58,340 nucleotides of DNA from Patescibacteria group bacterium (GTDB lineage Bacteria > Patescibacteriota > Patescibacteriia > SG8-24): positions 1 through 58,340 of the forward strand of contig JAYEJB010000071.1 in the NCBI GenBank assembly GCA_034716415.1, written 5' to 3'. The notes beneath the pieces are model-generated. The model saw only the letters and a program-made list of their open reading frames with translations. It made no database searches and had not been told where the DNA came from. Both the position numbers and the translations under genes were made by a program. Shown here piece by piece: positions 3,861-56,451 of this stretch. The stretch's first letter is position 1. Each line of letters begins with the position of its first letter.

Positions 3861-5576
3861 ATGTCAAGCATCAAGACGAAAACCGAAATCGCCGAAGTCA
3901 TGGTCAGAGAGGCCATAGCGCGCCACGTCACCGAGAGAGACGTTTTTTTTCGTGTGGTGCAGGATGTCGCGAGGAGTCATTGCGTACAGATGCCGCCCGT
4001 ACGGAAACTCCTGGCCGCATACCGCGCCGTCATCCGCGAGAATCCGAAGCTGGCCGACACGGCGATCGAAACGTTCCTGACCAAATCGAGGGTGCGATCG
4101 CTATCCGGCGTCGCGGTGGTGACAGTGCTGACCAAGCCGTATCCCTGTCCGGGCAAGTGCGTCTATTGCCCGGACGACCGCTCGATGCCGAAGAGCTACT
4201 TACCGAACGAACCGGCCGCGATGCGCGCTGCCGCGCACAAGTTCGATCCGTTCGGGCAGGTGACACAACGCTTGCGGGCCTTGACCGCAAACGGCCACCC
4301 GGCCGACAAGATAGAACTGATCGTGAAAGGCGGTACTTGGTCGGCTTACCCTCGGAAGTATCAACAGGAATTCATCAAAGACTGTTTCGATGCCTGCAAT
4401 TCGTTCGGTGGACGGAAATCGACATCAGACGATCTGGCAGGCGCGCATAAGAAGAATGAAAGCGCGCGATATCGCGTCATCGGACTGACGCTCGAGACAC
4501 GTCCCGACCGCATCACACCGCAAGAGATAGTCCAATTACGGGAACTCGGCTGCACACGCATCGAGATGGGCGTGCAGTCGGTCGATGACGCCATCCTCAA
4601 GACGTGCCGTAGGGGGCACGACAGCGCCGCCGTGGTGAAAGCGACGCGACTCCTGAAGGACGCCGGTTACAAATGCGACTACCACATGATGCCGCAGCTA
4701 CCCGGCGCGTCGCCGAAATCCGACGAACGACAACTGAAGCGCATCTTCGAAGACCCTGATTATCGTCCGGACATGCTCAAGATCTACCCGTGCACGGTGC
4801 TGAAAAAATCACCGCTACACCGCTGGTGGAAGGACGGACGCTACAAGCCATATCCCAATTCACGACTCAAAGAGGTCATCATCGCCGCCAAACAGGCCGT
4901 ACCGCGCTACTGCCGTATCAGCCGTATCATCCGTGACATTCCGTCGGATTCCATCTGCGCCGGAAATCCGGTGACAAGCCTGCGGCAGGTGATACAACGA
5001 GAGATGAAAGAACGTGGTCTGTCCTGTGACTGCCTGCGTTGCCGGGAGATCGGCCGCAAACTTCAAGAAAATCCTAACCTCGCTCACTCCCCCACTCTGA
5101 CATTTGACGACACTTATGAAGCTTCGGGTGGCGAAGAGCACTTCTTGAGTATTGAAGACCCGGGTAGGCAGGCTGTTTTTGCCTTCTGTCGATTAAGATT
5201 GCCGGCAACTGTTTCATGCCTCGAACAATCAACGACGGCTTCACTCACTCCCCCATCCCCGGTTACGGGGCAAAACGCGGGAAAACGGGGCAAAACGGGA
5301 CAAGACGAACTTAACGTGAACCACCCCTCCCCATCCACGGCCTTTCTCCGCGAACTCCACACTTACGGTCATCTCGTGCCGATCGACAAAAAGAATCCCG
5401 ACGCCGCTCAGCACAAAGGTTACGGCAAACGATTGATGGCTGAAGCCGAACGCATCACCCACAAAGCCGGCTTCCGCAAGATGGCGGTCATCAGCGGTAT
5501 CGGTGTGCGTGCCTACTACCGTAAACTCGGTTATCGGTTGCGGGATACGTATATGGTTAAAACGCTACGGGAGTAA
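3861..5576 (+). CDS. elp3: Elp3-family radical SAM/GNAT tRNA wobble-uridine modification enzyme
   Basis: Motifs SLSGVAVV, CPGKCVYCP, GGTW, TLETRPD, EMGVQS, HMMPQLPG, KIYPC, CDCLRCRE, RELHTYG, QHKGYG, ISGIGVRAYYRKLGY. Confidence 0.95.
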   Translation: MSSIKTKTEIAEVMVREAIARHVTERDVFFRVVQDVARSHCVQMPPVRKLLAAYRAVIRENPKLADTAIETFLTKSRVRSLSGVAVVTVLTKPYPCPGKCVYCPDDRSMPKSYLPNEPAAMRAAAHKFDPFGQVTQRLRALTANGHPADKIELIVKGGTWSAYPRKYQQEFIKDCFDACNSFGGRKSTSDDLAGAHKKNESARYRVIGLTLETRPDRITPQEIVQLRELGCTRIEMGVQSVDDAILKTCRRGHDSAAVVKATRLLKDAGYKCDYHMMPQLPGASPKSDERQLKRIFEDPDYRPDMLKIYPCTVLKKSPLHRWWKDGRYKPYPNSRLKEVIIAAKQAVPRYCRISRIIRDIPSDSICAGNPVTSLRQVIQREMKERGLSCDCLRCREIGRKLQENPNLAHSPTLTFDDTYEASGGEEHFLSIEDPGRQAVFAFCRLRLPATVSCLEQSTTASLTPPSPVTGQNAGKRGKTGQDELNVNHPSPSTAFLRELHTYGHLVPIDKKNPDAAQHKGYGKRLMAEAERITHKAGFRKMAVISGIGVRAYYRKLGYRLRDTYMVKTLRE

Positions 5577-5703: not shown

Positions 5704-5988
5704 GTGGCGTATTACGTCATAAACGAAACGACCCTCCCGCTGAGGGTCATAGCATGGCGGGTTAAAGGCGAACCCGCCATTAAGCTCTTACTGGCAGTCA
5801 CGACCAACAAGGCCCCATACGCGATGATCGATATCACGCTCCGGAAGAACGTGCATCAAAAAGCACGCCTCCCTGGCATCCACAAAATGGTCAAGGTCGA
5901 TGTCGTAAACAGGGCCAGGGTGACGACCAAGCTGGTCACAAACAAGAAAGGAGTCAGGTTCCTGTACATCAAAAGCATCCTCAACTAG
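5704..5988 (+). CDS. Hypothetical protein (94 aa, basic, beta-rich)
   Basis: GTG start after AAAGGAGG; co-oriented with the next small ORF. Confidence 0.6.
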   Translation: MAYYVINETTLPLRVIAWRVKGEPAIKLLLAVTTNKAPYAMIDITLRKNVHQKARLPGIHKMVKVDVVNRARVTTKLVTNKKGVRFLYIKSILN

Positions 5989-14449: not shown

Positions 14450-14890
14450 ATGCATAACTTCCCCGAACCGATAGAGCGGCTCATCGAGGATCTCTGCCCC
14501 TCCTGCCCCTTCTCCCACCCCCGCTCCTCCCCGCCCAACAATGACATGAGATAAATGCGTGATTTTCCAGAACAAATCAAGAGACTTATCGAGGAGCTCG
14601 GCCCTTCGACTCCGCTCAGGACCTCCCCGCCCAACAATGACATGAGATAAATGCGTGATTTTCCAGAACCAATCAAGAGACTCATCGAGGAGCTCGGCCC
14701 TTCGACTCCGCTCAGGACCTCCCCGCCCAACAATGACATGAGATAAATGCGTGATTTTCCAGAACCAATCAAGAGACTCATCGAGGAGCTCGGCCCTTCG
14801 ACTCCGCTCAGGACCTCCCCGCCCAACAATGACATGAGATAAATGCGTGATTTTCCAGAACCAATCAAGAGACTTATCGAGGAGCTCGGC
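14450..14890 (+). repeat. Tandem array duplicating the recR start region (3 x 96-bp units plus one 105-bp diverged unit)
   Basis: ATGs at 14450, 14555, 14651, 14747 and 14843, each later ATG directly preceded by TAA; a 78-nt segment is repeated four times, separated by CCTTCGACTCCGCTCAGG. Confidence 0.95.
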
Positions 14891-24349: not shown

Positions 24350-24730
24350 TCAGGATGACAACAGCCCCAACAGCTGATTACCGAACTCGTAGATGACGAA
24401 AGGCGGCAACAACAACCAAAGCAGGAACACCGCAAACATGACGACGATCAACAGGAGCAATAGTACCGAATAGAAGACGATCGTCACTAGCCGCATGAAA
24501 AAACTAATGAGGCGGCTCGCGATATCGCGCTGGCCGAACATCGGTACGAACAGGTTCTTGACCCAGACACTCCAACCGAGAGCGATAGCCACCCCGGCGA
24601 CAGTCCCGCCACAAAACCGCGCCGCGCGCAGCGTTCCGCCCGTGTACCACCAGATCGGGTAATACAAGACCGAGCCGACGAGGTCAACCGCGACGAATTT
24701 CGTTGCCATTGCGACTCTATTCTGTGCCAT
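24350..24730 (-). CDS. Small membrane protein immediately upstream of the Clp ATPase
   Basis: 126 aa; YYPIWWYT, LFVPMFGQ.D, long hydrophobic C-terminal half; 5-nt gap to the clp start. Confidence 0.8.
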   Translation of the reverse strand: MAQNRVAMATKFVAVDLVGSVLYYPIWWYTGGTLRAARFCGGTVAGVAIALGWSVWVKNLFVPMFGQRDIASRLISFFMRLVTIVFYSVLLLLLIVVMFAVFLLWLLLPPFVIYEFGNQLLGLLSS

Positions 24731-24848: not shown

Positions 24849-24956
24849 TTGTCATTGCGAGCGAACGCGCCTGCCTGCCCCTGCCTGCCGGCAGGCAGGG
24901 GCAGGCAGGAAGCAATCCCGACGGGATTGCCGCGGCCTTCGGCCTCGCAATGACAA
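24849..24956. repeat. Family-B palindrome carrying a 40-bp nested insertion
   Basis: TGTCATTGCGAG...CTCGCAATGACA; 24870-24909 is the 20-mer CCTGCCTGCCGGCAGGCAGG inserted into the centre of a second copy of itself. Confidence 0.9.
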
Positions 24957-25135
24957 GAAAAATGAGATTCCGCAATTCCCACCATAATCCCTCAAGCCAG
25001 GCTTGAAGCCTGGCTTGAAATAATTAAGAGGGTGACTCCTCAGCTTCAACAAAAAAACGCCCCCTGGGCGCCATTTCTTCTCCCGCTTTTCCCGCTTCTG
25101 CCCCTTCCCTGCCTGCCGGCAGGCAGGTCCCGCTA

Positions 25136-25486
25136 TTATTTAACCGCCACCGCCGCCGGGCCGGTCGTCAAATAATCCACCCGCGACACCGGCACGAAAC
25201 CGAGTCCGCTGACGTGCGAGTCGATGTTTTCCATGGCTTGCACCGAAACCATCTCAAGATCCAGCTTGCGTCCCTGATCACGCAGTTCGGCGATGTGCTT
25301 CTCGGCCAATCTGATCGCGAATCCCTTGGTCGCGGCCCTGTTGTTCATCATCAGATACCCCACGAAGAGAGAGAGTATCAGCGCGGCCAACGCGATATTG
25401 GCCACCATAACCCAATCCAGCCTGCGCCAAACCCTCGCCCTGACGGCTACTTTCGTCTTCCTGTTTGTCTTCCTTCGGTAAGGCAT
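25136..25486 (-). CDS. ftsL: FtsL-like cell division protein (116 aa)
   Basis: Follows rsmH; basic N-terminus, one transmembrane helix, coiled coil, LGFV tail. Confidence 0.7.
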   Translation of the reverse strand: MPYRRKTNRKTKVAVRARVWRRLDWVMVANIALAALILSLFVGYLMMNNRAATKGFAIRLAEKHIAELRDQGRKLDLEMVSVQAMENIDSHVSGLGFVPVSRVDYLTTGPAAVAVK

Positions 25487-25487
25487 C

Positions 25488-26414
25488 CTAGTCGTTCTTT
25501 TGGATGATACGTAGTTTTGCGCTCCGTGAGCGCGGGTTTTCCGAGACTTCCTGCTCGGACGGCGTAATCGGCTTCTTAACGACAGCAGTCGCCTCATCTG
25601 ATCTCACCTTGCTCCGGATGAACTGCTTGACGATGCGGTCCTCGAGCGAATGGAACGAGATAACCGCCAGCCGCCCGCCGTCGTCCATCGCATCGAACAG
25701 CGCCGGTAGCGCCTCCCTCAGCGTGTTGAGTTCATCGTTGACCGCTATCCTCAACGCTTGAAAGGTCTTGGTGGCGGGATGTATCCTGCCGCGTCTCCTC
25801 CTTGGATTTACCGCGCCAGCTACGATTTCCGCCAGCCGTAGCGTTGAAATGATGCGCTCGCCTTTTCTGGCGGCGATAACAGCCGAGGCGATACGTTTCG
25901 CCTCGCGCTCCTCGCCGTACTTCATCAGTAGCATCGTGAGCTCTTCGGCAGTGTTTCCGTTGACGATTGCGGCGGCAGTCAGCGACCCGGCTTGCCGTGA
26001 GCCTGTCGAACGGTCGTAACGCATATCGAGCGGCCCGTCCTGCCTGAAACTGAAACCGCGGGACGGGTCGTCGATTTCCATCGATGAATATCCGAGATCC
26101 AGAAGTGCCGCCTGAAACGACCCGAAGGAGGTGGAGAGGAGGACCTGATCGAAGTTCCGATAGCTCTCGCGGACAAGCATTGCGCGCGAGCCGAAATCTT
26201 CGAGCGTCCTGCGGGCCGTTTCAAGCGCCGCTTCATCGAGATCCAGACCCAGAAGGCGACCGTCCGGTGCCGTACGCTCAAGTATCGCTTCAGCATGTCC
26301 ACCGCCACCGACCGTACAGTCGATGACCGCCATGCCTGGCTTGAGCGCCAGCGCTTCAACGGTTTCGTTCAAAAGGACGGGTATGTGCTTTTTGTTTTCG
26401 TCGGGGTTTTCCAT
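25488..26414 (-). CDS. rsmH: 16S rRNA m4C1402 methyltransferase
   Basis: HIPVLLNE, DCTVGGGGH, DLGYSS, RGFSF, PLDMR, HPATKTFQALRIAVNDEL, ISFHSLEDR, NPRSRSAKLR. Confidence 0.98.
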   Translation of the reverse strand: MENPDENKKHIPVLLNETVEALALKPGMAVIDCTVGGGGHAEAILERTAPDGRLLGLDLDEAALETARRTLEDFGSRAMLVRESYRNFDQVLLSTSFGSFQAALLDLGYSSMEIDDPSRGFSFRQDGPLDMRYDRSTGSRQAGSLTAAAIVNGNTAEELTMLLMKYGEEREAKRIASAVIAARKGERIISTLRLAEIVAGAVNPRRRRGRIHPATKTFQALRIAVNDELNTLREALPALFDAMDDGGRLAVISFHSLEDRIVKQFIRSKVRSDEATAVVKKPITPSEQEVSENPRSRSAKLRIIQKND

Positions 26415-26420
26415 ATCGGT

Positions 26421-26852
26421 CTATATCCCGAGCTCCCCCATACGCTCGGCGATGTCTTCCGCTTTCTTTTCTGTCTTGGCTTTGTACTTTTCCCAGGCCG
26501 CCTTGTCCCAGATCTCCATCTTATTGAACAGTCCGGCGACGACCGCGTCTTTCTTGAGCCCGGCGTACTGACGCAGGTATTCCGGGATGATCACCCGACC
26601 CTGCTTGTCCGTGTCGACTTCCACCGCTCCGGCCAGCATCAGCCTGGCGAAGGCGCGCGAATCGGCTTGGGTCATCGGCAGGGCGGCGATCTTTTCCGCC
26701 AGCTTTTTCCATTCACTCGCTGAAAACACGAAAAGGCAGTTGTCGAGTCCTCTCGTCACAACCGCCCCGCCAGAGAGCTTCTTGCGGAACTTGACCGGTA
26801 TCGCAAGGCGCCCTTTTTCGTCTAACGTATGCTGATATTCGCCGATGAACAT
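26421..26852 (-). CDS. mraZ: Transcriptional regulator MraZ
   Basis: MFIGEYQHTLDEKGRLAIP, DKQGRVIIP, EIWD. Confidence 0.98.
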   Translation of the reverse strand: MFIGEYQHTLDEKGRLAIPVKFRKKLSGGAVVTRGLDNCLFVFSASEWKKLAEKIAALPMTQADSRAFARLMLAGAVEVDTDKQGRVIIPEYLRQYAGLKKDAVVAGLFNKMEIWDKAAWEKYKAKTEKKAEDIAERMGELGI

Positions 26853-26896
26853 CGAATTCGCGCTTTGAAGTAAAAAATGAACCGTTCAGGGTTATC

Positions 26897-26932
26897 CCCA
26901 CCTTTCCCCACTTCCTTATTATCATACACCAC
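26897..26932 (-). promoter_or_regulatory. Putative MraZ-binding GTGGG direct repeats
   Basis: CCCAC at 26897 and 26907 (10-bp period) plus CACCAC at 26927, upstream of mraZ. Confidence 0.6.
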
Positions 26933-27037
26933 TGAACACCTTAGGTCAACATTATTTGGCTTTGTTATCCACAAAAAAGAAAGACGCGCATGTGATGCGC
27001 GTATACGGAGCGAATAGTACCTTAGGTCCTGTCGAAG

Positions 27038-27532
27038 CTACTCTATGCCGTGCCCGAGCTTCTGCAATTGTTCCGCGACCAGTTCAATAGGTACCCGGAA
27101 CGTCCGCATTGCACCACGGGGCGGCTTGAACGGTATCGGCTCGTCGAATCGACATAGGTCTTCGAAAAAAAAGCCGATAGGGAAAGGCCAGATGGAATTA
27201 CCGTCCGTACGCATCCGCCGCCGTGCTACGGATTTCGACTTGATGTTGTTGAATGCACGGAACAGCTCAACCCGCTCCCCCATCGTAAGTTCACGCACGT
27301 CAACGAGGTCGGCGCAGCCTACGATGATACCCTTGGTGAATCCGGTAAGCTCCAGACCATGCGCGAGTACGACCTCATGATCCGCCCTGGACGAGGTGTA
27401 CAGCAATGTCAGGCCACGATGCTTCCAGCGCCAAATGCGCGTCTTGGCCAGCAGCTTGCCGTCAAGAAGAAGCTCATTATACGGATAACGGTTCGGAAAC
27501 GCGGGGACAGTCAATTCGTCGGACATGTCCAA
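27038..27532 (-). CDS. ASCH/PUA-like domain protein
   Basis: LLLDGK..KTR.W..RG, GIIVGCADLVDV, RFDEPIP; ATG after AAGGAG. Confidence 0.7.
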   Translation of the reverse strand: MDMSDELTVPAFPNRYPYNELLLDGKLLAKTRIWRWKHRGLTLLYTSSRADHEVVLAHGLELTGFTKGIIVGCADLVDVRELTMGERVELFRAFNNIKSKSVARRRMRTDGNSIWPFPIGFFFEDLCRFDEPIPFKPPRGAMRTFRVPIELVAEQLQKLGHGIE

Positions 27533-27633
27533 CTCCTTTCGTTAAAGACCAGGGGAGGGACTTACTCCCGCTGACTATTATTGTCAAAAAGAAAAGGCCG
27601 CATGATGTAAACCATACGGCTGCCGACACTGCC

Positions 27634-27984
27634 TCACGCAGTCGGTTTGTCCCTCCCGCAGAGGAACTCGATCGAGTCAGGCAATGCGCCAGTGGCTGCC
27701 ACGATCTCGCGGCGAGCTTGATCCTGCTCCCACTTGAACACCGGTTCGGTTTCGACCGCATCGATCGTGGTCGCGAACTCGACAGGCAGTGATGTTTCCA
27801 CATCAATCTCGATGTGGGACTGCCGAAGCGCCGGACGGGTCCGGCCGAACACGAGCACCATCTCGGGGTGCCCACCCCCCTGCGAAATCGCCTTGACGAG
27901 ATAGGTGTGTGTGCCGACGACTTCGAAGTTGTCGGCGAATGGCTGTCGGGAGAATATCTCCCCCTGCTCGATGAGCATAGCCAT
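27634..27984 (-). CDS. Hypothetical protein (~116 aa)
   Basis: Start chosen after GGAGGAGG; ORF extends upstream to 28056. Confidence 0.55.
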   Translation of the reverse strand: MAMLIEQGEIFSRQPFADNFEVVGTHTYLVKAISQGGGHPEMVLVFGRTRPALRQSHIEIDVETSLPVEFATTIDAVETEPVFKWEQDQARREIVAATGALPDSIEFLCGRDKPTA

Positions 27985-28065
27985 GGCGTCCTCCTCCATG
28001 TCATCGGGTTGCCGCTGCTCTGCAGCTTCAACGGTTTCCTGCAAAAGAGCTGCCATGCATAAAGC

Positions 28066-28518
28066 CTATCGGAACCACAGCAATAGCGCAATTATCGCCT
28101 GACCGGACAGGCCAAGCCAGAGTGGCAGTCTGACACCGGTCAAACGATGCGCTTTCTTGTGTAAGGGTGTCAGGAAGCCGAATACGTTGCGTTTGAACAC
28201 CATCTCCATGCCGAACATGACGTCAGGCAGGATAGAACCCGCAACCACAGCGGCAAAGTGCCAATGAAAACCGACAGACATGGAGTACATCAGGAACGCG
28301 GCTGACATCACCGCAAAGTCTCCGGCGAAGAACGGTATCGCCCGCCGGACCGACCTGTCGCTCTCAAGCACCCAATCCCCTATCCGCTCGTCACCGTGCG
28401 GGATGGCGTCGCCGACGTAATGCAAAGCCCAACCGAGCGCGAACGCGGCGGCGGGATTGGTGATGCCGATGGCGGTGACGGCGGTGACGCCGATAGCAGA
28501 GTGGACGGTGAGAAACAT
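28066..28518 (-). CDS. Membrane protein, YdjM/DUF457-like metal-dependent hydrolase
   Basis: HSAIG, HYVGDAIPH, SILPD, LHKKAH; hydrophobic. Confidence 0.7.
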   Translation of the reverse strand: MFLTVHSAIGVTAVTAIGITNPAAAFALGWALHYVGDAIPHGDERIGDWVLESDRSVRRAIPFFAGDFAVMSAAFLMYSMSVGFHWHFAAVVAGSILPDVMFGMEMVFKRNVFGFLTPLHKKAHRLTGVRLPLWLGLSGQAIIALLLWFR

Positions 28519-28658
28519 ATATTAATCCGATTAACCGAGCGCTGGTACCAGGTTCTTCCTGTGTGAAAGTCGTATGACTTGTACACAGGAATGTACCTGG
28601 TACCCCTAGAAAGCACGTCACTCTTGGCACAGCTGTGCCAGAGCGAATGCGAAGCTTC

Positions 28659-29987
28659 CTAGGAGCGGTTGGGCTTGTGGGAGGACCCCCTGGTCCGCCG
28701 CAGCATTCGCCTCTTTCTGTGATAGCTAATCGCGAACCGATGAGCCTCGTCACGAACATGCTGTAACAACGGCTTGAACGCGTAGGTCAGCCGAGCCAGT
28801 TCGTTATCCTTCTTATCATACACCAGCTCGTCCTGCTTGCGATCGAAACCCTTGGCGATACCGACCAGCGGGATGTTAAGTCCGTTATCTTCAAGAACGC
28901 GCTTGGCGACATTTAACTGCCCTCTGCCTCCATCAATAAGAATAAGATCCGGCAATCGCCAACTTTCTCGCTTTCTCGCTCTTTCGCTCTCTTGCCCCTT
29001 CTCCCGCTTCTGCCCCTTCTGCCCCTTCACGCGCGCAAACCTCCTCCGCAACATCTCTTCAAGCATGGCGGTATCATTAGAACCCACCACCGTCTTGATC
29101 CTAAACTTGCGATACGCCGACTTCTTCGGCCGGCCATCCTCAAAGACGACCATACTACCGACCGCGTCCTGCCCGCTGATGTTTGATATATCGTATCCTT
29201 CGACGCGACCGAACACGTCGATGAACTGCTGCAGCTCCGCGTCGTCACGTTTCATGATCGCCATATCGCGGATGTGTTCGAGCGCCCAAAGACGGTCACG
29301 GTACGATGCCGCCACTTCGAAATCCTTACGCTCGGCCGCGGCTTTCATGTTGCGCTTCAACGATCGCACCACCTCCCCCCTCTTCCCGTCGAAGTAACGC
29401 ATCAACCCGCGGATGATGACCTTGTAGTCGCGTGATGAGATGTTCCCCGTGCAGACGCCGGCGCACTGACCGAGATGCACATAAAAACACGGACGACCGC
29501 GGTTCGGTTTGCAGGTCGACCATGGGAACGCCTTGCGCAAGGCATCGAGCGACGCCTGCACCGCACCGGTCGACTTGAACGGGCCGAACGTCTTCAGGAA
29601 CCGTTTCTTCGACGTGCGCACCAGTTCATGTTCACGGATGAGCACCGGACGCGGATAATCTTCGCGCGTAAACGCCAGGTAGACCCGGCTCTTGTCGTCC
29701 TTGTCGCGGACGTTGTACGGCGGCTGGAGTTTCTTGATGTTCTTCGCCTCGAGAATGAGCGCCTCGACCGCGGTCGGTGTCTCCTCCCAGTCGATCTCCC
29801 GGATCTTCTTCACCATCTGCGCGATGCGCGCGTCCGCCGGTCGCGTGAAGTAGCTCGAAACACGCGTGCGTAAGGATGTCGCCTTACCCACGTACATTAT
29901 CTTGCCTGCCGCATCCTTCATGAAATACACCCCTGGCCGCGGCGGCAGTTCATCCTTCTTCAGTTTTACGTTCTCCGGAATCGCCAT
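28659..29987 (-). CDS. uvrC: Excinuclease ABC subunit C (no C-terminal HhH domain)
   Basis: PGVY..YVGKA GIY-YIG, UVR domain, EGYDISN, PDLILIDGGRGQ, RDEAHRFA. Confidence 0.92.
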   Translation of the reverse strand: MAIPENVKLKKDELPPRPGVYFMKDAAGKIMYVGKATSLRTRVSSYFTRPADARIAQMVKKIREIDWEETPTAVEALILEAKNIKKLQPPYNVRDKDDKSRVYLAFTREDYPRPVLIREHELVRTSKKRFLKTFGPFKSTGAVQASLDALRKAFPWSTCKPNRGRPCFYVHLGQCAGVCTGNISSRDYKVIIRGLMRYFDGKRGEVVRSLKRNMKAAAERKDFEVAASYRDRLWALEHIRDMAIMKRDDAELQQFIDVFGRVEGYDISNISGQDAVGSMVVFEDGRPKKSAYRKFRIKTVVGSNDTAMLEEMLRRRFARVKGQKGQKREKGQESERARKRESWRLPDLILIDGGRGQLNVAKRVLEDNGLNIPLVGIAKGFDRKQDELVYDKKDNELARLTYAFKPLLQHVRDEAHRFAISYHRKRRMLRRTRGSSHKPNRS

Positions 29988-29998
29988 ACGCGCCTGGC

Positions 29999-30059
29999 AT
30001 TATGGCAGTAAACAATACGATTGTCCATGCTTGACACTCACGTCATAAATTGATATTCT
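29999..30059. promoter_or_regulatory. Back-to-back promoters for uvrC and the orphan at 30082
   Basis: Minus strand TGGACA-N17-CATAAT; plus strand TTGACA-N17-TATTCT. Confidence 0.6.
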
Positions 30060-30081
30060 GCGCCTTCGAGAAAGGAAAAGA

Positions 30082-30546
30082 ATGACCGATGCAAACCAGG
30101 GGTTCGAACAGCTTAGCGTAAGCGAAGAGGATGAATTCCTGTTGGGCGGCAAGAGGCTGTGGCATCGTACGAACGGAGACATCGGAGCCGTGTTCGAATT
30201 CATCGACGCGGCCAGAAAAATCGTCCGCGTCGTGCGCAAAAGCAGCATCGAGCCACACAAATCGCCGACAATGGAAGTTCTTCAGCTCGTCGATCGCAGC
30301 ACCGGTTGCACGGCGGAGATAACTGCCGATTGCTTTCGACGCAACCGCTACGACTGGATGATACGCCGCGATTCCGACCTAACCGCCGAGTACGAAGACA
30401 ACGACAAGACGACCGAAGCGGTCAAAAAGCGGATCGACGAGATCATGACGCTGAGAGCGGCGCTGCAGAAAGAGCTGGAGCTAGTGAACAGCGAGAACGG
30501 CCTCCTGCGCGCTAAGTTCGCTGGAGCGATCACAAAAGGCCTGTAG
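30082..30546 (+). CDS. Hypothetical protein with C-terminal coiled coil
   Basis: 154 aa; AAGGAAAAG before ATG; own promoter and terminator. Confidence 0.7.
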   Translation: MTDANQGFEQLSVSEEDEFLLGGKRLWHRTNGDIGAVFEFIDAARKIVRVVRKSSIEPHKSPTMEVLQLVDRSTGCTAEITADCFRRNRYDWMIRRDSDLTAEYEDNDKTTEAVKKRIDEIMTLRAALQKELELVNSENGLLRAKFAGAITKGL

Positions 30547-30656
30547 CACAACCGCTCTTGGTAGCGTCCCCAACTGACCGCACTGCGGTCTTTTTTTATA
30601 CAATGTAGCCCTTCGACTCCGCCACGCTCCGCTCAGGGATTATTTATTTATGAGAT

Positions 30657-30750
30657 GATGTCTTATGCACAGTTTGGGACAAAAACAGGCAGCCTGTTTC
30701 TCGCAAGAAACAGACTGCCTGTTTTTGTCCCAAACTGTGTATAAGACATC
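30657..30750. repeat. Family-A 94-bp palindromic element
   Basis: GATGTCTTATGCACAGTTTGGGAC...GTCCCAAACTGTGTATAAGACATC. Confidence 0.92.
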
Positions 30751-30924
30751 TACTGTTTACTTCAAAAAAATAGTGCCTGAGCTTAAAATTTTGGGGACTG
30801 TCCCCGATAAGACTGGCTTGGGGACACTTCTCAAGATTAAAACTTCTGAACAAGCCTTGCCTGTTCCGCTCCCATGCGATATCATTCCCCGCGTCATATC
30901 AATAATAATCATCTCACTTACTAT

Positions 30925-32397
30925 ATGTCTCTACGTAGAGGCCTTCTCGCTCTCGGCGCGGTCGGTGCCGGCATCCTGATGCCAGCGATCGCGTTCGCCA
31001 CAGAGCACGCGGAAGAAGTCGGCCACGTAGCTGAAGAAGCGGGTCATGCCGCCGAGTCCGGCCATGGCTTGCACGCCATCACGCTGATCTTCTTCCTGTT
31101 CATCATGCTGATGTTCGCCCGCATCGGCGCGCTCATGGAGCGTATCGGCCAGCCGGCCGTACTGGGTGAACTGTTGATGGGTGTGCTGTTAGGCGCGCTC
31201 GCTTTCTGCCCGGGTCTCGGGTTCATCAACGAACTCAAGAGCACGGAATTCATCGCGCTCATCGCCGAGATCGGTGTCATTATCCTGCTGTTCCGCACCG
31301 GACTCGAGTCCAACCTGCGCGAAATGAAGAGCGTGGGCGTGAAAGCGGTCATGGTCGCTATCGTCGGGGTGGTCCTGCCGTTCGTCGGCGGCTACTTCGC
31401 CTCCAAACTGTTGATTCCCGGCCTCGACATCAACACTTACCTGTTCATCGGCGCGACACTGACCGCGACTTCGGTCGGTATCACCGCGCGCGTGTTCAAG
31501 GATCTGAACATGCTGTCCTCCAAGGAAGCCAAGATCGTCCTGGGCGCGGCGGTGTTCGATGACATATTAGGCCTGTTGATCCTGGCCGTGGTGGCGGGCA
31601 TGGTTTCCGGCGGTAGCGTGTCCCCCGGTGAGATCGCCTGGATTTCGGCCAAGGCGTTCCTGTTCCTGGTGATCTCGGTCGCGCTCGGTCAATTGTTGGC
31701 TAAGAGAGTCAGCTCGGCCTTCTCTAAGATCCACAGTGGCGTGGGCATGAAGATGGCTTTGGCCCTGCTGTTCTGCGGCATCTACGCTTACGGCGCGGCC
31801 GCGCTCGCCGGCTTAGCGCCGATCGTCGGTGCGTTCGCCGCCGGTCTAGTGCTCGACCCGTTGCACTTCGATGACTTCATCGCTCCGGCCATCTCCCAGA
31901 AACTACGTGGCTGGGCGGCCAAACTGAACGGGTCCGACGTGGCAACCGAAGAGGTGAAAGAAGAGATGCACGCCGAAGCGGACCACGAGGAACACATGCA
32001 CGTCGAGAATCTGGTCGAACAGGTCGGCTGGTTCTTCATGCCCATCTTCTTCGTCTACACCGGTCTGCAAGTCAATCTGGAGACGTTCGCCGAACCCAAA
32101 GTGCTGATCATCGGCCTGGCGCTCACGGTCGTGGCGTTCATCGGTAAGATCGCCGCCGGTTGGGTGGCCGGCAAGGGCGTCAACAAACACATCATCGGTT
32201 TCGGCATGGTGCCGCGCGGCGAGGTCGGTCTGATCTTCGCCAACGTCGGTAAACAGTTGGGGGTGGTGTCGGACGAGACGTTCTCGATCGTGGTGATCAT
32301 GGTTATTCTATCTACCCTGCTCACACCGCCGATCCTGGGCGTGCTGATCAAGAGACAGCGGCAACAGAAAGCCGACGCAGGGGCATCTGCCGAATGA
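30925..32397 (+). CDS. Cation:proton antiporter (CPA2, NapA/KefB-like)
   Basis: GQPAVLGELL, AEIGVIILLF..GLE, TATSVGIT, AAVFDD, GAFAAG, PIFF, PRGEV; His/Glu-rich N-terminal linker. Confidence 0.93.
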   Translation: MSLRRGLLALGAVGAGILMPAIAFATEHAEEVGHVAEEAGHAAESGHGLHAITLIFFLFIMLMFARIGALMERIGQPAVLGELLMGVLLGALAFCPGLGFINELKSTEFIALIAEIGVIILLFRTGLESNLREMKSVGVKAVMVAIVGVVLPFVGGYFASKLLIPGLDINTYLFIGATLTATSVGITARVFKDLNMLSSKEAKIVLGAAVFDDILGLLILAVVAGMVSGGSVSPGEIAWISAKAFLFLVISVALGQLLAKRVSSAFSKIHSGVGMKMALALLFCGIYAYGAAALAGLAPIVGAFAAGLVLDPLHFDDFIAPAISQKLRGWAAKLNGSDVATEEVKEEMHAEADHEEHMHVENLVEQVGWFFMPIFFVYTGLQVNLETFAEPKVLIIGLALTVVAFIGKIAAGWVAGKGVNKHIIGFGMVPRGEVGLIFANVGKQLGVVSDETFSIVVIMVILSTLLTPPILGVLIKRQRQQKADAGASAE

Positions 32398-32458
32398 AGA
32401 CTCCCCGGGCTCAAGCCCTGCCTGCCGGCAGGCCGTGGATTTCTGCGGGGGTGGATAA
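32393..32458. repeat. Family-F repeat (copy also at 56374-56423) interrupted by a CCTGCC element
   Basis: AATGAAGACTCCCCGGGCTCAAGC[CCTGCCTGCCGGCAGG]CCGTGGATTTCTGCGGGGG versus the empty copy AATGAAGACTCCCCAGGCTGAAGCCCGCGGTGTTCTGCGGAGG. Confidence 0.8.
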
Positions 32459-41158: not shown

Positions 41159-41278
41159 AACATGCTGAGGGCGGGATTGCCGCAGTCGCCTGCGGGCTCC
41201 CTCGCAATGACAAAAAAGGGTGCTTTACCCTCATTGTCATTGCGAGCGAAAGCGAAGCAATCCCGCCCTCAGCATGTT
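41159..41278. repeat. Composite family-B element with halves in inverted order and a 22-bp perfect outer inverted repeat
   Basis: AACATGCTGAGGGCGGGATTGC...GCAATCCCGCCCTCAGCATGTT enclosing CTCGCAATGACA then TGTCATTGCGAG. Confidence 0.88.
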
Positions 41279-44451: not shown

Positions 44452-44664
44452 ATTCTCTATTTAAGTATCCGTCATTGTAGCAAGGGGAAGGTAAAAAAGT
44501 CTAAAAGCTTATTATATTTCCTACAGCTTTTCAGCTTTCTATCCCGCCCCGTCTTGCCTGTCCTGAGCCACGTCGAAGGGCCCCGTTTTTCTGCTCTTCC
44601 CGCTAGCCCGACATCCGCCGGGCGGTTCCCGCTTCTCCCGCTTCTGCCCCTTCTCCCACTCCCC

Positions 44665-47385
44665 CTACGCCCACGAATGCGGGATGTATCCCCGACGCGC
44701 GAACACCTTATATATCTCAACCACAAACAGTACCGAGCTCGTCACTACGGCGATCAACAGCCACTCATACCAGCCGAGCGGTGCGGTGCGGAAGACTTTC
44801 TGTAACGGCGGAAGATACAACACGGCGAACTGCAGTCCCAGCGACGCCACCACCGACCAGAACACGTACATGTTCGTGAACAGTCCGATCTTGAAGAGCG
44901 ACTCCTTGATGGATCTCATGTTGAAGACGTTCCAGAGCTGGAACACCGCCATGGTGGTAAAGGCGACGGAGCGCGCGTAGGTCAGATCCCCCCTGTCGAG
45001 CGCCCACTTGAACAGGAGCAACGTGCCGACGGCCATCAGCACACTCGTGATGACGGTCAGAAGCAAGACGTTCTTGGAGAGGATCGGTGTCTTGCTACAG
45101 CGCGGCGATTCTTTCAGGACGCCGCCACGCCGTTTTTCGGTGGCGAGCGCGACATCCGGAAAACCGTCCGTCACCAGATTCATCCAAAGTATCTGCGCGG
45201 GCAACAACGGCAGCGGAAAACGCAAAGCCATGCTGGCGAGAATGGTCACGACCTCGCCGATATTGGTCATGAACAGATAGGCGACGGTCTGCTTGACGTT
45301 GCGGAAGATGATCCTCCCCTCCTCTATCGCGCCGATGATGGACACGAAATTATCGTCGGCGAGCACCATATCCGCGACATCCTTCGATACGTCGGTGCCG
45401 GTGATACCCATCGAGATGCCGATCGCCGCGCGTTTCAACGCGGGCGCGTCGTTCACGCCGTCGCCAGTCATGGCCACGGTATGCCCCCGGTCCTGTAATC
45501 GGTCTACGACGCGCAGTTTGGTATCAGGCGACACCCGCGCGAAAATTACGACGTCGTCCAGCGCACGGTCGAATTCCGCGTCGTTCATATCGCGTATATC
45601 CGCGTCCGTGTATACACCCTTGATCTCACCCCGTTCGTTCCGACTGATGATGCCTACCTCGCGGGCGATGGCCAGGGCCGTGGCCTTCTGATCCCCTGTC
45701 GCCATGATGATGCGCACCCCCGCGCTTCTGGCATCCTCGACGGCGTCGGCTACGCCCGCGCGCGGCGGATCTATCATCCCGATGAGGCCCAGGAACGAAA
45801 GATCGCTGACGTCCTTGTCGCCCAGGCTGTCCTGTTTCAGATCCGCTTCCCTATACGCGACAGCAATGACGCGCATGGCGCCGGCGGCCATGCCTTCATT
45901 GGCCGAACTGAGACAGGCCATGTCGTCAGGCACCAGACATTGACTTCCGTGTTCGGCGACGATATATGAACTGCGTCCGGACAGGACCTCGAACGCGCCG
46001 ACCGTAAAGACATGACGCATGACATTACCGCGCAGGTCGGTGCTCTCCACCAACATCGCCCGATACATCCTCGATGAACTGAACGGAATCTCGTCGATGA
46101 CGCGATACTCGCTCATCATCTCCTGTTTGTCGAATCCGGCCTTCGCTCCCGCGACCACCATCGCCCCTTCGGTCGGATCGCCGATGACCGCGGCGCGTCC
46201 GTCCTTCCTCACGAGCCGCGCCTTGTTGCAGACCGTGGCCACCTTGAGGAGCAGGTTGAGTTGTGCATTCTCGGCCGGGCGGACCTTCTTCTTCTCCATG
46301 TAGAAATCTCCTCCCGGCTCCCAACCCTCGCCGGTCACGCGATAGCTCAGGCAAGACGTGGCGATCTCACGCACCGTCATCTTGTTCTCGGTGAGCGTGC
46401 CGGTCTTGTCGGTACAGATGACGTCCGCGACACCCAACGTCTCGACAGAGGGCACGTGCCGAATGATGGCGTTGCGTTTGGCCATCCGCCGCACGCCGAT
46501 CGCCAAGACGACCGCCAGCACCGCCGGAAGACCCTCCGGAATCACCGACACGACGAGCGCGACGGCGAAAAAGAACATCTCCGATACGGGCGTACCGCGC
46601 AAGTAGCCGAAGACGAAGACGATCATCGCCAAAACTATCGAAACGATACCCAAAGTCTGACCGAGCGAATCTATCCTGATCTCGAGCGGAGCCTTCTCGT
46701 GCTCGATATCCTTGAGCGAAGAGGCGATACTGCCGAACTGCGTCTTCAGACCGGTCCCCGCAATGACGGCACGGCATGTCCCAGCGACGACCGAGGTGCC
46801 CATCCAGATCATGTCGGTCCTGTCGGGGATTCCGATGTCAGTCGCGACCGGGTCGGATGATTTCGAGACCGCCGACGATTCGCCTGTAAGCGCGGCCTCG
46901 TCGGTGCGCAGATCCTTACTTGAGATCAACCTGGCATCGGCCGGAACCTTGTCCCCCTCCTCGAGCATAATGATATCGCCCGGCACCAAGAGCGCCGAAT
47001 CGAAACGATGCGCCTCTCCGTCGCGCATCACGGTCGCTTCGAAGACGACCATCTGCCGCAACTTCTCGATAGCGCCCTCCGCCTTGCGCTCCTGCCAAAA
47101 ACCGAATCCCGCGTCGATGAACACCGCGAGCAGGATGCCATAGGCGTCATTAGGATGACCGGAAGCGAAAGATACGGCCGCCGCAATGAACAGTACATAC
47201 GTCAGCCGGCTATGGAATTGACTCAACACTAACCACAGCAGACTCTTCTTCTTCCCTTCGGGTAGCTCGTTGCGACCGTATTCGTCCAGACGGACGGCCG
47301 CCTCCTCCGAAGACAGTCCGCCGTCGACATCCGTCCCCAACGCGGCGATGACCTTATCGATATCTTTGTCGTGATAGCTGTTCAT
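44665..47385 (-). CDS. Type II (Ca2+-like) P-type ATPase
   Basis: TGES, PEGL, DKTGTLT, GDPTE, DPPR, TGDGVNDAPAL, MNLVTD. Confidence 0.96.
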   Translation of the reverse strand: MNSYHDKDIDKVIAALGTDVDGGLSSEEAAVRLDEYGRNELPEGKKKSLLWLVLSQFHSRLTYVLFIAAAVSFASGHPNDAYGILLAVFIDAGFGFWQERKAEGAIEKLRQMVVFEATVMRDGEAHRFDSALLVPGDIIMLEEGDKVPADARLISSKDLRTDEAALTGESSAVSKSSDPVATDIGIPDRTDMIWMGTSVVAGTCRAVIAGTGLKTQFGSIASSLKDIEHEKAPLEIRIDSLGQTLGIVSIVLAMIVFVFGYLRGTPVSEMFFFAVALVVSVIPEGLPAVLAVVLAIGVRRMAKRNAIIRHVPSVETLGVADVICTDKTGTLTENKMTVREIATSCLSYRVTGEGWEPGGDFYMEKKKVRPAENAQLNLLLKVATVCNKARLVRKDGRAAVIGDPTEGAMVVAGAKAGFDKQEMMSEYRVIDEIPFSSSRMYRAMLVESTDLRGNVMRHVFTVGAFEVLSGRSSYIVAEHGSQCLVPDDMACLSSANEGMAAGAMRVIAVAYREADLKQDSLGDKDVSDLSFLGLIGMIDPPRAGVADAVEDARSAGVRIIMATGDQKATALAIAREVGIISRNERGEIKGVYTDADIRDMNDAEFDRALDDVVIFARVSPDTKLRVVDRLQDRGHTVAMTGDGVNDAPALKRAAIGISMGITGTDVSKDVADMVLADDNFVSIIGAIEEGRIIFRNVKQTVAYLFMTNIGEVVTILASMALRFPLPLLPAQILWMNLVTDGFPDVALATEKRRGGVLKESPRCSKTPILSKNVLLLTVITSVLMAVGTLLLFKWALDRGDLTYARSVAFTTMAVFQLWNVFNMRSIKESLFKIGLFTNMYVFWSVVASLGLQFAVLYLPPLQKVFRTAPLGWYEWLLIAVVTSSVLFVVEIYKVFARRGYIPHSWA

Positions 47386-56351: not shown

Positions 56352-56451
56352 CAGTAGCCGGCCGTTCTGTTCCAATGAAGACTCCCCAGGCTGAAGCCCG
56401 CGGTGTTCTGCGGAGGCGAATAAAAAATCCGGCTTAGACCGGATTCTGCTG

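Follow-up and report, generated by a model that had tools for sequence, protein, structure and literature searches.

Can a palindrome of only 20 bp that encodes nothing move as a discrete unit into other repeats, and even into itself? This question is raised by a 58,340-nucleotide (nt) stretch of DNA, hereafter called the window, which is contig JAYEJB010000071.1 of assembly GCA_034716415.1 from a Patescibacteria group bacterium (contig C71 of the genome G000, which comprises 1.31 Mb in 76 contigs, has 56% GC and is rated 97% complete). The palindrome, hereafter called P20, is CCTGCCTGCCGGCAGGCAGG, a perfect 20-bp palindrome of the form (CCTG)2CC/GG(CAGG)2 that folds in single-stranded DNA as an 8-bp hairpin (here and below, a slash marks a centre or a junction). 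A previous sequence-only reading of the window described P20 as a very small non-autonomous insertion that enters repeats and itself without target duplication, and the analyses reported here support this description. P20 is a real, cross-phylum and ultra-small insertion element, and it appears to rank among the smallest mobile DNA elements known.

In the window, P20 was found at the three sites of the sequence-only reading, including a self-nested copy and a 16-bp form (P16), and all coordinates were confirmed (Table 1). Three P20 matches are present in the window, compared with none in 100 shuffles of the window, and an Rfam search of the window returned no match. All three sites are intergenic, being located in gaps between open reading frames (ORFs). 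At the first site, the nested palindrome at 24870-24909 reads CCTGCCTGCC/CCTGCCTGCCGGCAGGCAGG/GGCAGGCAGG, and this 40-mer is predicted to form a DNA hairpin of -25.2 kcal/mol. It is positioned at the junction preceding the 3' strand AAGCAATCC of its host, a repeat of family B, and the window copy of this repeat together with the nested palindrome is predicted to fold into a three-way junction. Family B is a hairpin repeat of the SRM/NTS kind, which is associated with Ssn GIY-YIG nucleases (cf. PMC11893778). The second copy (25108-25127), in family C, is 8 nt from the stop of a minus-strand ORF (25136-25597), while the repeat of family F that hosts P16 is directly 3' of the stop of the ORF 30874-32397.

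The first and third of these sites were also claimed to have an empty counterpart, and counterparts of all three sites were located within the window at 41236-41264, 44626-44665 and 56375-56424, respectively. Excision of the insert from the family-B site leaves GCGAACGCG/AAGCAATCCC, which matches GCGAAAGCG/AAGCAATCCC at 41246-41264. The empty paralogue of the family-C site reads CTTCTGCCCCTTC/TCCCAC at 44640-44658, and in family F the empty junction GCTGAAGC/CCGCGG compares with the filled GCTCAAGC/P16/CCGTGG.

In the whole 1.31-Mb genome, P20 is present as 26 exact copies, and about 14 near copies deviate from it by one to three changes. Removal of exactly 20 bp gave junction-spanning empty paralogues for 32 of the 40 copies (354 hits), compared with 6-11 of the 40 (13-36 hits) for control removal windows that were shifted by 7 nt. 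The clearest filled/empty pair is found on contig C45, where two copies of a 75-nt segment are 180 bp apart, have flanks that are 100% identical and differ solely by the P20 in one of them (filled at 5575, empty at 5772). A total of 131 SRM-type 5' arms, corresponding to about 65 elements, were found in family B, of which P20 fills 4 elements. Because most of the family-B host repeats (all but 4 of about 65 elements) are empty, it is the filled state that is derived. No target duplication was found in the family-F, family-B, C45 or tRNA contexts. When P20 is gained, precisely 20 bp are added and the target site is not duplicated.

At least eight contexts of P20 are found in this genome. They include the hairpin repeat GTCATTGCGAG...GCAATCC...CTCGCAATGAC (family B), short tandem repeats of three kinds, which make up the arms of long hairpins and have units of GAAGGGGCAGAAGCGGGA, GTGAGA-like sequences and TAGCGGGGA, respectively, family F, which is a repeat that starts on stop codons (ATGAAGACTCCCC...), and two tRNA-Gly 3' fragments, as well as several single sites. 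Family F opens with ATGAAGACTCCCCGGGCTGAAGC, whose TGA, at 32395-32397, terminates the upstream gene, and its 21-nt motif has 25 matches genome-wide, about 20 of which are true copies. One subfamily continues with CCCGGGGTATCTGA... and has a CCCCGGGC and GCCCGGGG hairpin and a possible mini-ORF of 11 codons, and the second subfamily continues with CCGCGGTNTTCTGCGGAGGCGAATAA; P20 is borne only by the second.

The placement of P20 within these families might also be explained if P20 entered each repeat family once, or was always part of it, and has since been carried as an immobile passenger by recombination, with the empty sites being precise deletions. The position of P20 is indeed constant within the 10 filled family-F copies, at the family-C junction GCGGGA/P20/GAAG and in the SRM loop, and 9 of the 12 copies of a Flavivirga genome are found in two composite families. 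This scenario does not, however, explain the eight or more unrelated contexts in one genome and the hundreds across phyla, nor does it explain the nested copies and the clean orthologous 20-bp gain in Flagellimonas that is described below. Precise deletion of a palindrome that has no flanking direct repeats is not expected, the filled elements are a minority in the SRM family, and by sequence, filled and empty copies of family F are interspersed with each other. Moreover, both the pair on C45 and the site in Flagellimonas are nearly what a new insertion outside a P20-bearing repeat would look like. We consider an immobile passenger unlikely. Riding on the repeats that it has entered is nevertheless a way in which P20 spreads further, with arms that later gain or lose 4-nt units, and much of its copy number probably comes from such riding.

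The distribution of P20 extends well beyond this genome. P20 was found in 6 of the 40 nearest relatives, one of which (G037) belongs to another family, has about 30% GC and carries 17 copies. When the class was sampled evenly, P20 was present in 115 of 401 genomes, with 1 to 39 copies per carrier, and the same letters in reverse order are found in none of the 401. The copy number does not track relatedness among these genomes. When one genome per prokaryotic species was scanned, P20 was identified in at least 120 contigs of about 11 phyla by record title, compared with about 0.5 chance matches expected by our own arithmetic for a random 20-mer in the whole species collection. The carriers among the matches listed include many lineages of Patescibacteria, Omnitrophota, Bacteroidota, Ignavibacteria, Planctomycetota, Verrucomicrobia/PVC, Elusimicrobia, Bdellovibrionales, Thermodesulfovibrionales and Chloroflexi, as well as metagenome-assembled genomes (MAGs) labelled as Gamma- and Delta-proteobacteria, all MAG taxon labels being those of the submitters. 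Carriers are often AT-rich, and the same GC-rich 20-mer is found in genomes of 27-35% GC.

P20 is carried by cultured isolates as well, including Longitalea luteola (29 copies), Flavivirga sp. 57AJ16 (12 copies), two Flagellimonas (3-4 copies), Winogradskyella echinorum, Aquiflexum lacus, Aestuariivivens sediminis and Agriterribacter humi. Given that P20 is also found in a closed Flagellimonas chromosome and a curated complete WWE3 genome in addition to the cultured isolates, it is not an assembly artefact. An origin from adapters or assembly junctions was rejected on these grounds as well as on those of the mutated copies, the repeat-phase-specific sites and the range of 0 to 39 copies per genome. 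P20 is also present in 35 IMG/VR viral contigs. At the locus L165 (IMGVR_UViG_3300025106_000007), positions 3926-4130 are a tandem array of about ten 21-bp units, each of which contains the P20-like CCTACCGGCAGGCAGG.

The arms of P20 vary in length. The form with two units on each side (2+2) is the most frequent (n = 25), followed by 2+1 (n = 8) and 1+2 (n = 3), and 3+1, 1+4, 2+3 and 1+1 are represented by one copy each. Such variants differ by whole 4-nt units, and template switching is a known route to perfect hairpins, so that one could envisage a local origin at each site, in which CCTG/CAGG slippage or template switching builds quasi-palindromes and no pre-formed element exists. Slippage cannot, however, account for the presence or absence of P20, because the empty sites lack a CCTG seed. 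The identical 20-mer in genomes of 27-35% GC and the absence of the reverse-order 20-mer from all 401 genomes, compared with the 115 carriers of P20, are also at odds with a local origin, which we regard as highly improbable and, as an account of presence and absence, as refuted in practice. It stands for arm-length variation only: slippage of CCTG units alters the arms after P20 has arrived. The sequence-only reading had allowed that its variants might all be due to such slippage or that no empty-site alleles exist. Only the arm-length variants (2+1, 3+1, 1+4) are explained by slippage, and both filled and empty sites exist, paralogous in this genome and orthologous in Flagellimonas. Base changes within P20 are concentrated in the central CCGG, and every one of them is C-to-T on one of the two strands (TCGG six times, CTGG twice, CCAG once and CCGA once). 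These variants look like deamination of methylated cytosine, which suggests that the site may be methylated.

Orthologous comparison was possible in Flagellimonas. For the loci of the Patescibacteria genome itself, an exact-protein look-up gave no match and a metagenome scan gave one relative, which at 57% identity is too distant. Four P20 sites of Flagellimonas G041 were compared with up to 80 species. At site L200, G041 and its nearest relative G071 share ATCATCAA/P20/TCAAAAAAC, while G064, G090 and G076 are empty, which makes a clean 20-bp indel without duplication. G116 and G093 carry a different mini-insert of 27 nt, CATCTGCCCTGAGCAAAGTCGAAGGGT, a few bases upstream in the same tandem-repeat stretch. 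This insert belongs to the family of a second mini-repeat, CCTTCGAC-N3-GCTCAGG, and site L200 is direct evidence for a class of mini-inserts that share one hot spot. The 18-mer CCTTCGAC-N3-GCTCAGG is found in the window at 14603, 14699, 14795 and 44562, and the sequence-only reading held that it behaves like P20. This agrees with the presence in Flagellimonas of a family member at a site that holds P20 in sister species. The window positions 14603, 14699 and 14795 are also those of three copies of CCTTCGACTCCGCTCAGG with a spacing of 96 bp. At the Flagellimonas loci L191-L194, L199 and L200, the ends of genes bear short tandem repeats of 9-10 nt (the types ATTCGTGACA / TTAGTGTAA and CATCAATCAAA), whose copy number varies by species and which are hot spots for at least two mini-inserts.

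The sites that P20 occupies have features in common. Among 168 independent sites, the base adjoining the ends of P20 is A at 41%, G at 28%, C at 22% and T at 9%, so that purines make up 69% of the adjoining bases, and the flank pair A...T is found at 24% of the sites. Many sites are in-phase unit boundaries of short tandem repeats, such as AATTACG/P20/AATTACG, TTCGTCA/P20/TTCGTCA and TCTAAAA/P20/TCTAAAA. P20 occupies the exact centre of another palindrome (7-11 bp per arm) at 4 of 153 sites, compared with 0.0% of about 5000 control positions (rounded to three decimals). Nesting of P20 in P20-like hairpins recurs in delta-proteobacterial, Bacteroidetes and gamma-proteobacterial MAGs (L025, L049 and L028). 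In the SRM-type repeats of this genome and of Flavivirga, P20 is located in the loop directly before the 3' stem strand, and in a PVC-group MAG it is located in the loop of an SRM-type repeat, farther from the 3' stem strand. A tRNA-like sequence is found within 30 nt of P20 at 10 of 169 sites, compared with 0.9% of controls (p = 3e-6). Taken as a whole, these positions suggest that the targets of P20 are unpaired spots of foldable DNA, i.e., loops and junctions of Ssn-type hairpin repeats, boundaries of tandem repeats, centres of palindromes (that of P20 itself included, hence the nested 40-mer) and loops of tRNA fragments.

Most of the P20-holding tRNA-like sequences are truncated copies beside an intact gene. 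Because these sites are truncated fragments next to intact genes, removal of P20 restores no tRNA at most of them. The exception is a phage tRNA-Met, which is called a tRNA by ARAGORN with and without P20. On this contig (L156, IMGVR_UViG_3300033148_008720, about 2240-2330), P20 is found in the variable loop, and the tRNA is 92 nt long with the insert, like one with a long variable arm, and 72 nt long without it; the related contig L133 carries the same insert in a tRNA copy with a 13-nt deletion in the T arm. Rfam identified only ordinary tRNAs around the P20-bearing pseudo-tRNAs.

Several of these fragments are linked to small GIY-YIG genes. In G037 (contig C52, locus L188, 7523-8414), two tandem copies of a 372-bp unit precede an intact tRNA-Gln without P20. 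Each unit consists of the 5' part of tRNA-Gln, with P20 in the anticodon loop, and a GIY-YIG gene for a protein of 89 amino acids (aa), the 3' end of which overlaps the next tRNA copy. This arrangement looks like repeated homing into a restored tRNA. The same layout, i.e., a tRNA 5' fragment with P20, a small GIY-YIG gene and an intact tRNA or a copy of it, was found in four lineages beyond G037, with tRNA-Gly, tRNA-Leu, tRNA-Lys and, on a viral contig, one Lys-type tRNA whose downstream copy ARAGORN does not recognise as a tRNA. In at least five lineages, P20 is 8-23 nt upstream of the end of the fragment, where the small GIY-YIG cassette starts. At the DNA level, the P20-linked small GIY-YIG proteins match Pfam GIY-YIG, and they also match the UPF0213 protein BH0048 (PDB 1ZG2). 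In total, 5 of 169 sites are within 150 nt of a small GIY-YIG gene (p about 6e-5), and most P20 copies are far from any such gene.

In the genome that contains the window, there are four small GIY-YIG (UPF0213/Ssn-like) genes and one remnant (Table 1). Three of the genes abut tRNA-Tyr, tRNA-Ala and tRNA-Ser with duplicated tRNA 5' pieces, and the gene on contig C43 is flanked by family-B hairpin repeats of the GTCATTGCGAG type, like the NTS-ssnA-NTS layout. The GIY-YIG genes adjacent to P20 belong to the EKYLKSG branch found beside tRNA genes, while those flanked by SRMs are of the REKQIK type. No candidate enzyme is encoded in the window, as had been stated before; its only GIY-YIG match is in an ORF of 442 aa that is unassigned to a family and is not a small stand-alone gene.

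The sequence-only reading had suggested either an HUH enzyme (RAYT/TnpA) or a GIY-YIG enzyme. In the first case, P20 would be a REP-like element that is moved by an HUH tyrosine transposase (RAYT or IS200/IS605 TnpA). The hairpin shape, the lack of target duplication and the intergenic location of P20 fit single-strand transposition by an HUH enzyme, and the six Y1_Tnp matches of this genome are the top count among 41 relatives. Nevertheless, the five full RAYT-like genes of the genome are each flanked by their own distinct repeats or inverted repeats and never by P20, G037 with its 17 P20 copies has only a Y1 fragment of 39 residues, and G033 and G014 have none. In addition, P20 lacks an unpaired GTAG or CGTC tag and an asymmetric guide sequence, and no Y1 gene was found near P20 in about 160 loci. 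An HUH mover is for these reasons quite unlikely. The RAYT-like gene on contig C65 is flanked by GGGGTCGTGTCTCCAG / CTGGAGACACGACCCC, and that on contig C30 has three tandem copies of GGTACCAGGTACCAGTCAGCCTTATTT upstream.

Other candidate enzymes gave no lead. All-against-all clustering of the ORFs of about 160 P20 loci revealed no shared family except structural genes of related phage contigs, and no CCTGCCTGCC...GGCAGGCAGG pair enclosing a gene, as expected of a parent insertion sequence (IS), was found in the genome and about 230 loci. The enzyme tests were candidate-driven, with genes compared between 15 P20-rich and 17 P20-free genomes. Reverse transcriptase was rejected, given that it was found in 7 of the 15 and 4 of the 17 genomes, respectively, which is not significant, and that several closed or near-closed P20-rich genomes have none. 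The sole reverse-transcriptase match of the genome that contains the window (C63:24685-25200, minus strand) is bracketed by two degenerate P20 copies, which start at 24460 and 25597 (C63:24460-25615), which is probably a coincidence.

A different account dispenses with the copying of P20: the palindrome would be a scar made anew at each site when a break is healed, in that both 3' ends receive a templated tail (CCTG)nCC(GG), pair at CCGG and are sealed, and its identity across phyla would come from the built-in template of the enzyme. P20 does have the structure of two identical tails joined head to head, its arm lengths vary independently (eight copies of 2+1, three of 1+2 and single ones of 3+1, 1+4 and 2+3), no target duplication is seen and the sites are breakage-prone, i.e., hairpin tips, short tandem repeats and tRNA fragments beside nuclease genes. 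The same GC-rich 20-mer in genomes of 27-35% GC would be accounted for as well. We know of no such tail-adding enzyme in bacteria, however, and reverse transcriptase, which is the obvious candidate, does not track P20. The 2+2 form is strongly dominant, the off-centre nested copies (L025, L049) are simpler as one copy inserted in another, and unit slippage explains the arm variants equally well. A scar of this kind is improbable in our judgement, if somewhat less so than an HUH mover.

The probable explanation overall is that P20 is a non-autonomous, ultra-small mobile element that enters foldable DNA and is moved in trans. Insertion would take place in single-stranded DNA and would be carried out in trans by a structure-specific enzyme, for which a small single-domain GIY-YIG nuclease (UPF0213/Ssn-like) is the best candidate, with host repair or ligation completing the step. 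The identical 20 letters across phyla may reflect the constraint of this enzyme as well as travel with mobile cassettes and phages. A more specific proposal, which we offer tentatively and consider doubtful as a whole, is that P20 is the cognate hairpin of the clade of EKYLKSG-type, tRNA-nesting GIY-YIG proteins of ~85 aa. Both would form a two-part mobile system that reads structure and not sequence, in which the hydrolytic nuclease and host repair write a 20-nt hairpin into single-stranded DNA loops (of tRNA genes, of hairpin repeats and of its own tip) in at least ten phyla and phages, with tandem arrays and duplicated tRNA fragments as by-products of cutting and repair.

Several observations weigh against mobility in trans and against the GIY-YIG candidate. 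Transposition of P20 is read from filled and empty sites, and no event was witnessed directly. Because many copies share one position in one host family (the 10 filled family-F copies and the family-C junction), the genome has far fewer than 40 independent insertions, perhaps 10 to 15. Two of the four Flagellimonas comparisons show P20 differing along with extra sequence or a local duplication. At L199 and L201, it is inside a block of 80-110 nt that is missing in other species, the block at L201 being a duplicated tRNA-Asn 5' end. At site L016, P20 is flanked by two direct repeats of 9-10 nt, and one species has both repeats without P20 while two species have a single repeat, so that either P20 landed on an existing repeat boundary or its gain and loss leave a duplicated unit.

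With regard to the enzyme, nearly all genomes of the class have small GIY-YIG genes, whether or not they carry P20, and the difference between P20-rich (5.3 genes) and P20-free genomes (2.9 genes) is weak (p = 0.036). The EKYLKSG subfamily, i.e., the tRNA-cassette type, is found in 9 of the 15 P20-rich and 1 of the 17 P20-free genomes (p = 0.0017), a comparison of 32 phylogenetically non-independent genomes in which six P20-rich ones are without the motif. Because the sample is small and non-independent, the association is a lead and no proof. The three tRNA-linked cassettes of the genome that contains the window are without P20. The enrichment at tRNA fragments could also result from selection, in that the hairpin would be harmless and would break a direct repeat able to delete the cassette. 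Moreover, GIY-YIG enzymes hydrolyse DNA, and a joining activity is not known for them. The suggestion of a GIY-YIG mover is favoured by the adjacency in at least five lineages, the SRM loops and the distribution of the EKYLKSG subfamily, which together are suggestive only.

Table 1. Location of P20, its host repeats and their empty counterparts in the window, and of candidate enzyme genes elsewhere in the same genome (G000; contig:positions).
Feature	Location	Strand	Description
Nested 40-bp perfect palindrome	24870..24909	.	Outer P20 halves at 24870-24879 and 24900-24909
Inner P20 copy	24880..24899	.	CCTGCCTGCCGGCAGGCAGG, in exact centre of outer copy
Host repeat, family B	24851..24954	+	Hairpin repeat, GTCATTGCGAG...GCAATCCC...CTCGCAATGAC
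Empty family-B (SRM-type) arm	41236..41264	+	GTCATTGCGAGCGAAAGCG/AAGCAATCCC
P20 copy in family C	25108..25127	.	Flanked by CTTCTGCCCCTTC and TCCCGC, in pyrimidine-rich short tandem repeat arm
Host short-tandem-repeat arm of the 25108 copy	25075..25133	+	Units TCCCGCTT / CTGCCCCTTC
Empty family-C paralogue	44626..44665	+	...CGCTTCTGCCCCTTC/TCCCAC...
16-bp form P16	32417..32432	.	CCTGCCTGCCGGCAGG, two CCTG units and one CAGG unit (one CAGG fewer), in family F
Family-F repeat, filled	32393..32458	+	ATGAAGACTCCCCGGGCTCAAGC/P16/CCGTGGATTTCTGCGGGGGTGGATAA
Family-F repeat, empty	56375..56424	+	ATGAAGACTCCCCAGGCTGAAGC/CCGCGGTGTTCTGCGGAGGCGAATAA
Second mini-repeat copy	44562..44579	-	CCTTCGAC-N3-GCTCAGG, seen as CCTGAGCCACGTCGAAGG
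Small GIY-YIG locus	C23:3073-3390		
Small GIY-YIG locus	C14:8133-8537		
Small GIY-YIG locus	C59:22181-22342		
Small GIY-YIG locus	C46:11520-11783		
Small GIY-YIG locus	C43:147-563		
RAYT-like Y1 (HUH) gene	C5:47653-48255		
RAYT-like Y1 (HUH) gene	C30:1651-2250		
RAYT-like Y1 (HUH) gene	C67:23740-24633		
RAYT-like Y1 (HUH) gene	C65:6453-7292		
RAYT-like Y1 (HUH) gene	C32:5928-6560		

In addition to the repeats listed in Table 1, a repeat with GGTAGATGTCTTATGCACAGTTTGGGGCAAAAACAGGCAGCCTGTTTCC was noticed, 14-mers of which are found about 50-100 times in the 1.3 Mb, and the TTATGCACA of which resembles a DnaA box.

Among known systems, P20 is closest to the small dispersed repeats (SDRs) of cyanobacteria. 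The repeats SDR4-6 of Nostoc punctiforme and its relatives, which Elhai et al. (2008, Genome Res 18:1484) are said to have described, are reportedly non-coding, about 21-27 nt long, dispersed, nested in other repeats and in each other, and found in tandem heptamer repeats and at the palindromic HIP1 site, with no transposase assigned. They are also treated in citing papers (PMC5861425, PMC13756078, PMC3116915), one of which reports SDR-like repeats as absent outside Nostocaceae (PMC5861425). Like an SDR, P20 is a non-coding sequence of 20 nt with many dispersed and near-identical copies, is nested in repeats, in tandem repeats and in itself, and has filled and empty sites, paralogous and orthologous, that differ by exactly one P20. 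Unlike the SDRs, it is a perfect 20-bp palindrome, is non-cyanobacterial, has one sequence over about 11 phyla and viral contigs and is physically linked to small GIY-YIG cassettes and tRNA fragments. P20 works like an SDR and is set apart by lineage and symmetry, for which reason it is not filed in those families.

The NTS/dRS3/SRM repeats are likewise short, many-copy hairpin repeats of many phyla. They are associated with GIY-YIG genes for proteins of about 90 aa, as P20 may be. The Ssn proteins, which are single-domain GIY-YIG proteins (cd10448) of about 94 aa, bind NTS/SRM hairpins with CGTCATT-type tags in single-stranded DNA and cut just upstream, and their genes are usually flanked by NTS/SRM repeats, whose mode of multiplication is open (Chenal et al., 2025; PMC11893778). 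SRMs are directional and bear a conserved, non-palindromic 5' CGTCATT... tag, whereas P20 is symmetric and untagged; a CGTCATT-like tag is not found in P20 and is present in its host family B (GTCATTGCGAG). P20 also differs in that it is a guest inside SRM loops and in that the GIY-YIG genes adjacent to it are of another branch. The REP/REPIN sequences that are linked with RAYT (Bertels and Rainey, 2011, PMC3116915; Di Nocera et al., 2013, PMC3733652) resemble P20 as extragenic palindromes of 20-40 bp without target duplication that are thought to move in trans as single-stranded hairpins. P20, in contrast, has no GTAG/CGTC tag (its flanks show only the purine preference at -1), forms no inverted doublets and shows neither flanking by nor correlation with RAYT.

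The GC clusters of yeast and other mitochondria, for which a putative target-site duplication was reported (Wu and Hao, 2015; PMC4478555), are similar to P20 as short GC-rich palindromes (a few tens of bases) within AT-rich DNA that are rapidly gained and lost, merge, become nested and pass from one species to another. They differ in that they are organellar and about 30-45 nt long and have sequences unrelated to P20. Bacterial miniature inverted-repeat transposable elements (MITEs), such as Correia/NEMIS, ERIC, RUP and Nezha, are 70-300 bp long and have target duplications and terminal inverted repeats that match an IS. P20 shares with MITEs that it is non-autonomous, hairpin-forming and intergenic, and differs from them in its 20 bp, the lack of duplication and the failure to find an IS with CCTGCCTGCC ends. 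A target-site duplication of the MITE kind was found neither at the family-F, SRM and tRNA contexts nor at C45 and L200, and direct repeats flank P20 only in tandem repeats. In a text search of the literature, P20 was unmentioned, and its 12-mer core matched only zebrafish papers.

Palindromes such as P20 break assemblies and create spurious ORFs in small genomes, and the cultured carriers open P20 to bench work. The data link the Ssn-type nucleases, whose role outside Neisseria is open, with the unexplained hairpin repeats of many phyla and with the GIY-YIG cassettes of tRNA genes. Identical letters in Patescibacteria, Omnitrophota, Bacteroidota, Planctomycetota, Bdellovibrionota and others point to an enzyme that is either widely shared or travels horizontally. 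If P20 truly moves, the lower size limit of bacterial mobile DNA would be 20 bp, with no gene and no target duplication, and the mechanism behind it would recognise folded single-stranded DNA and not sequence.

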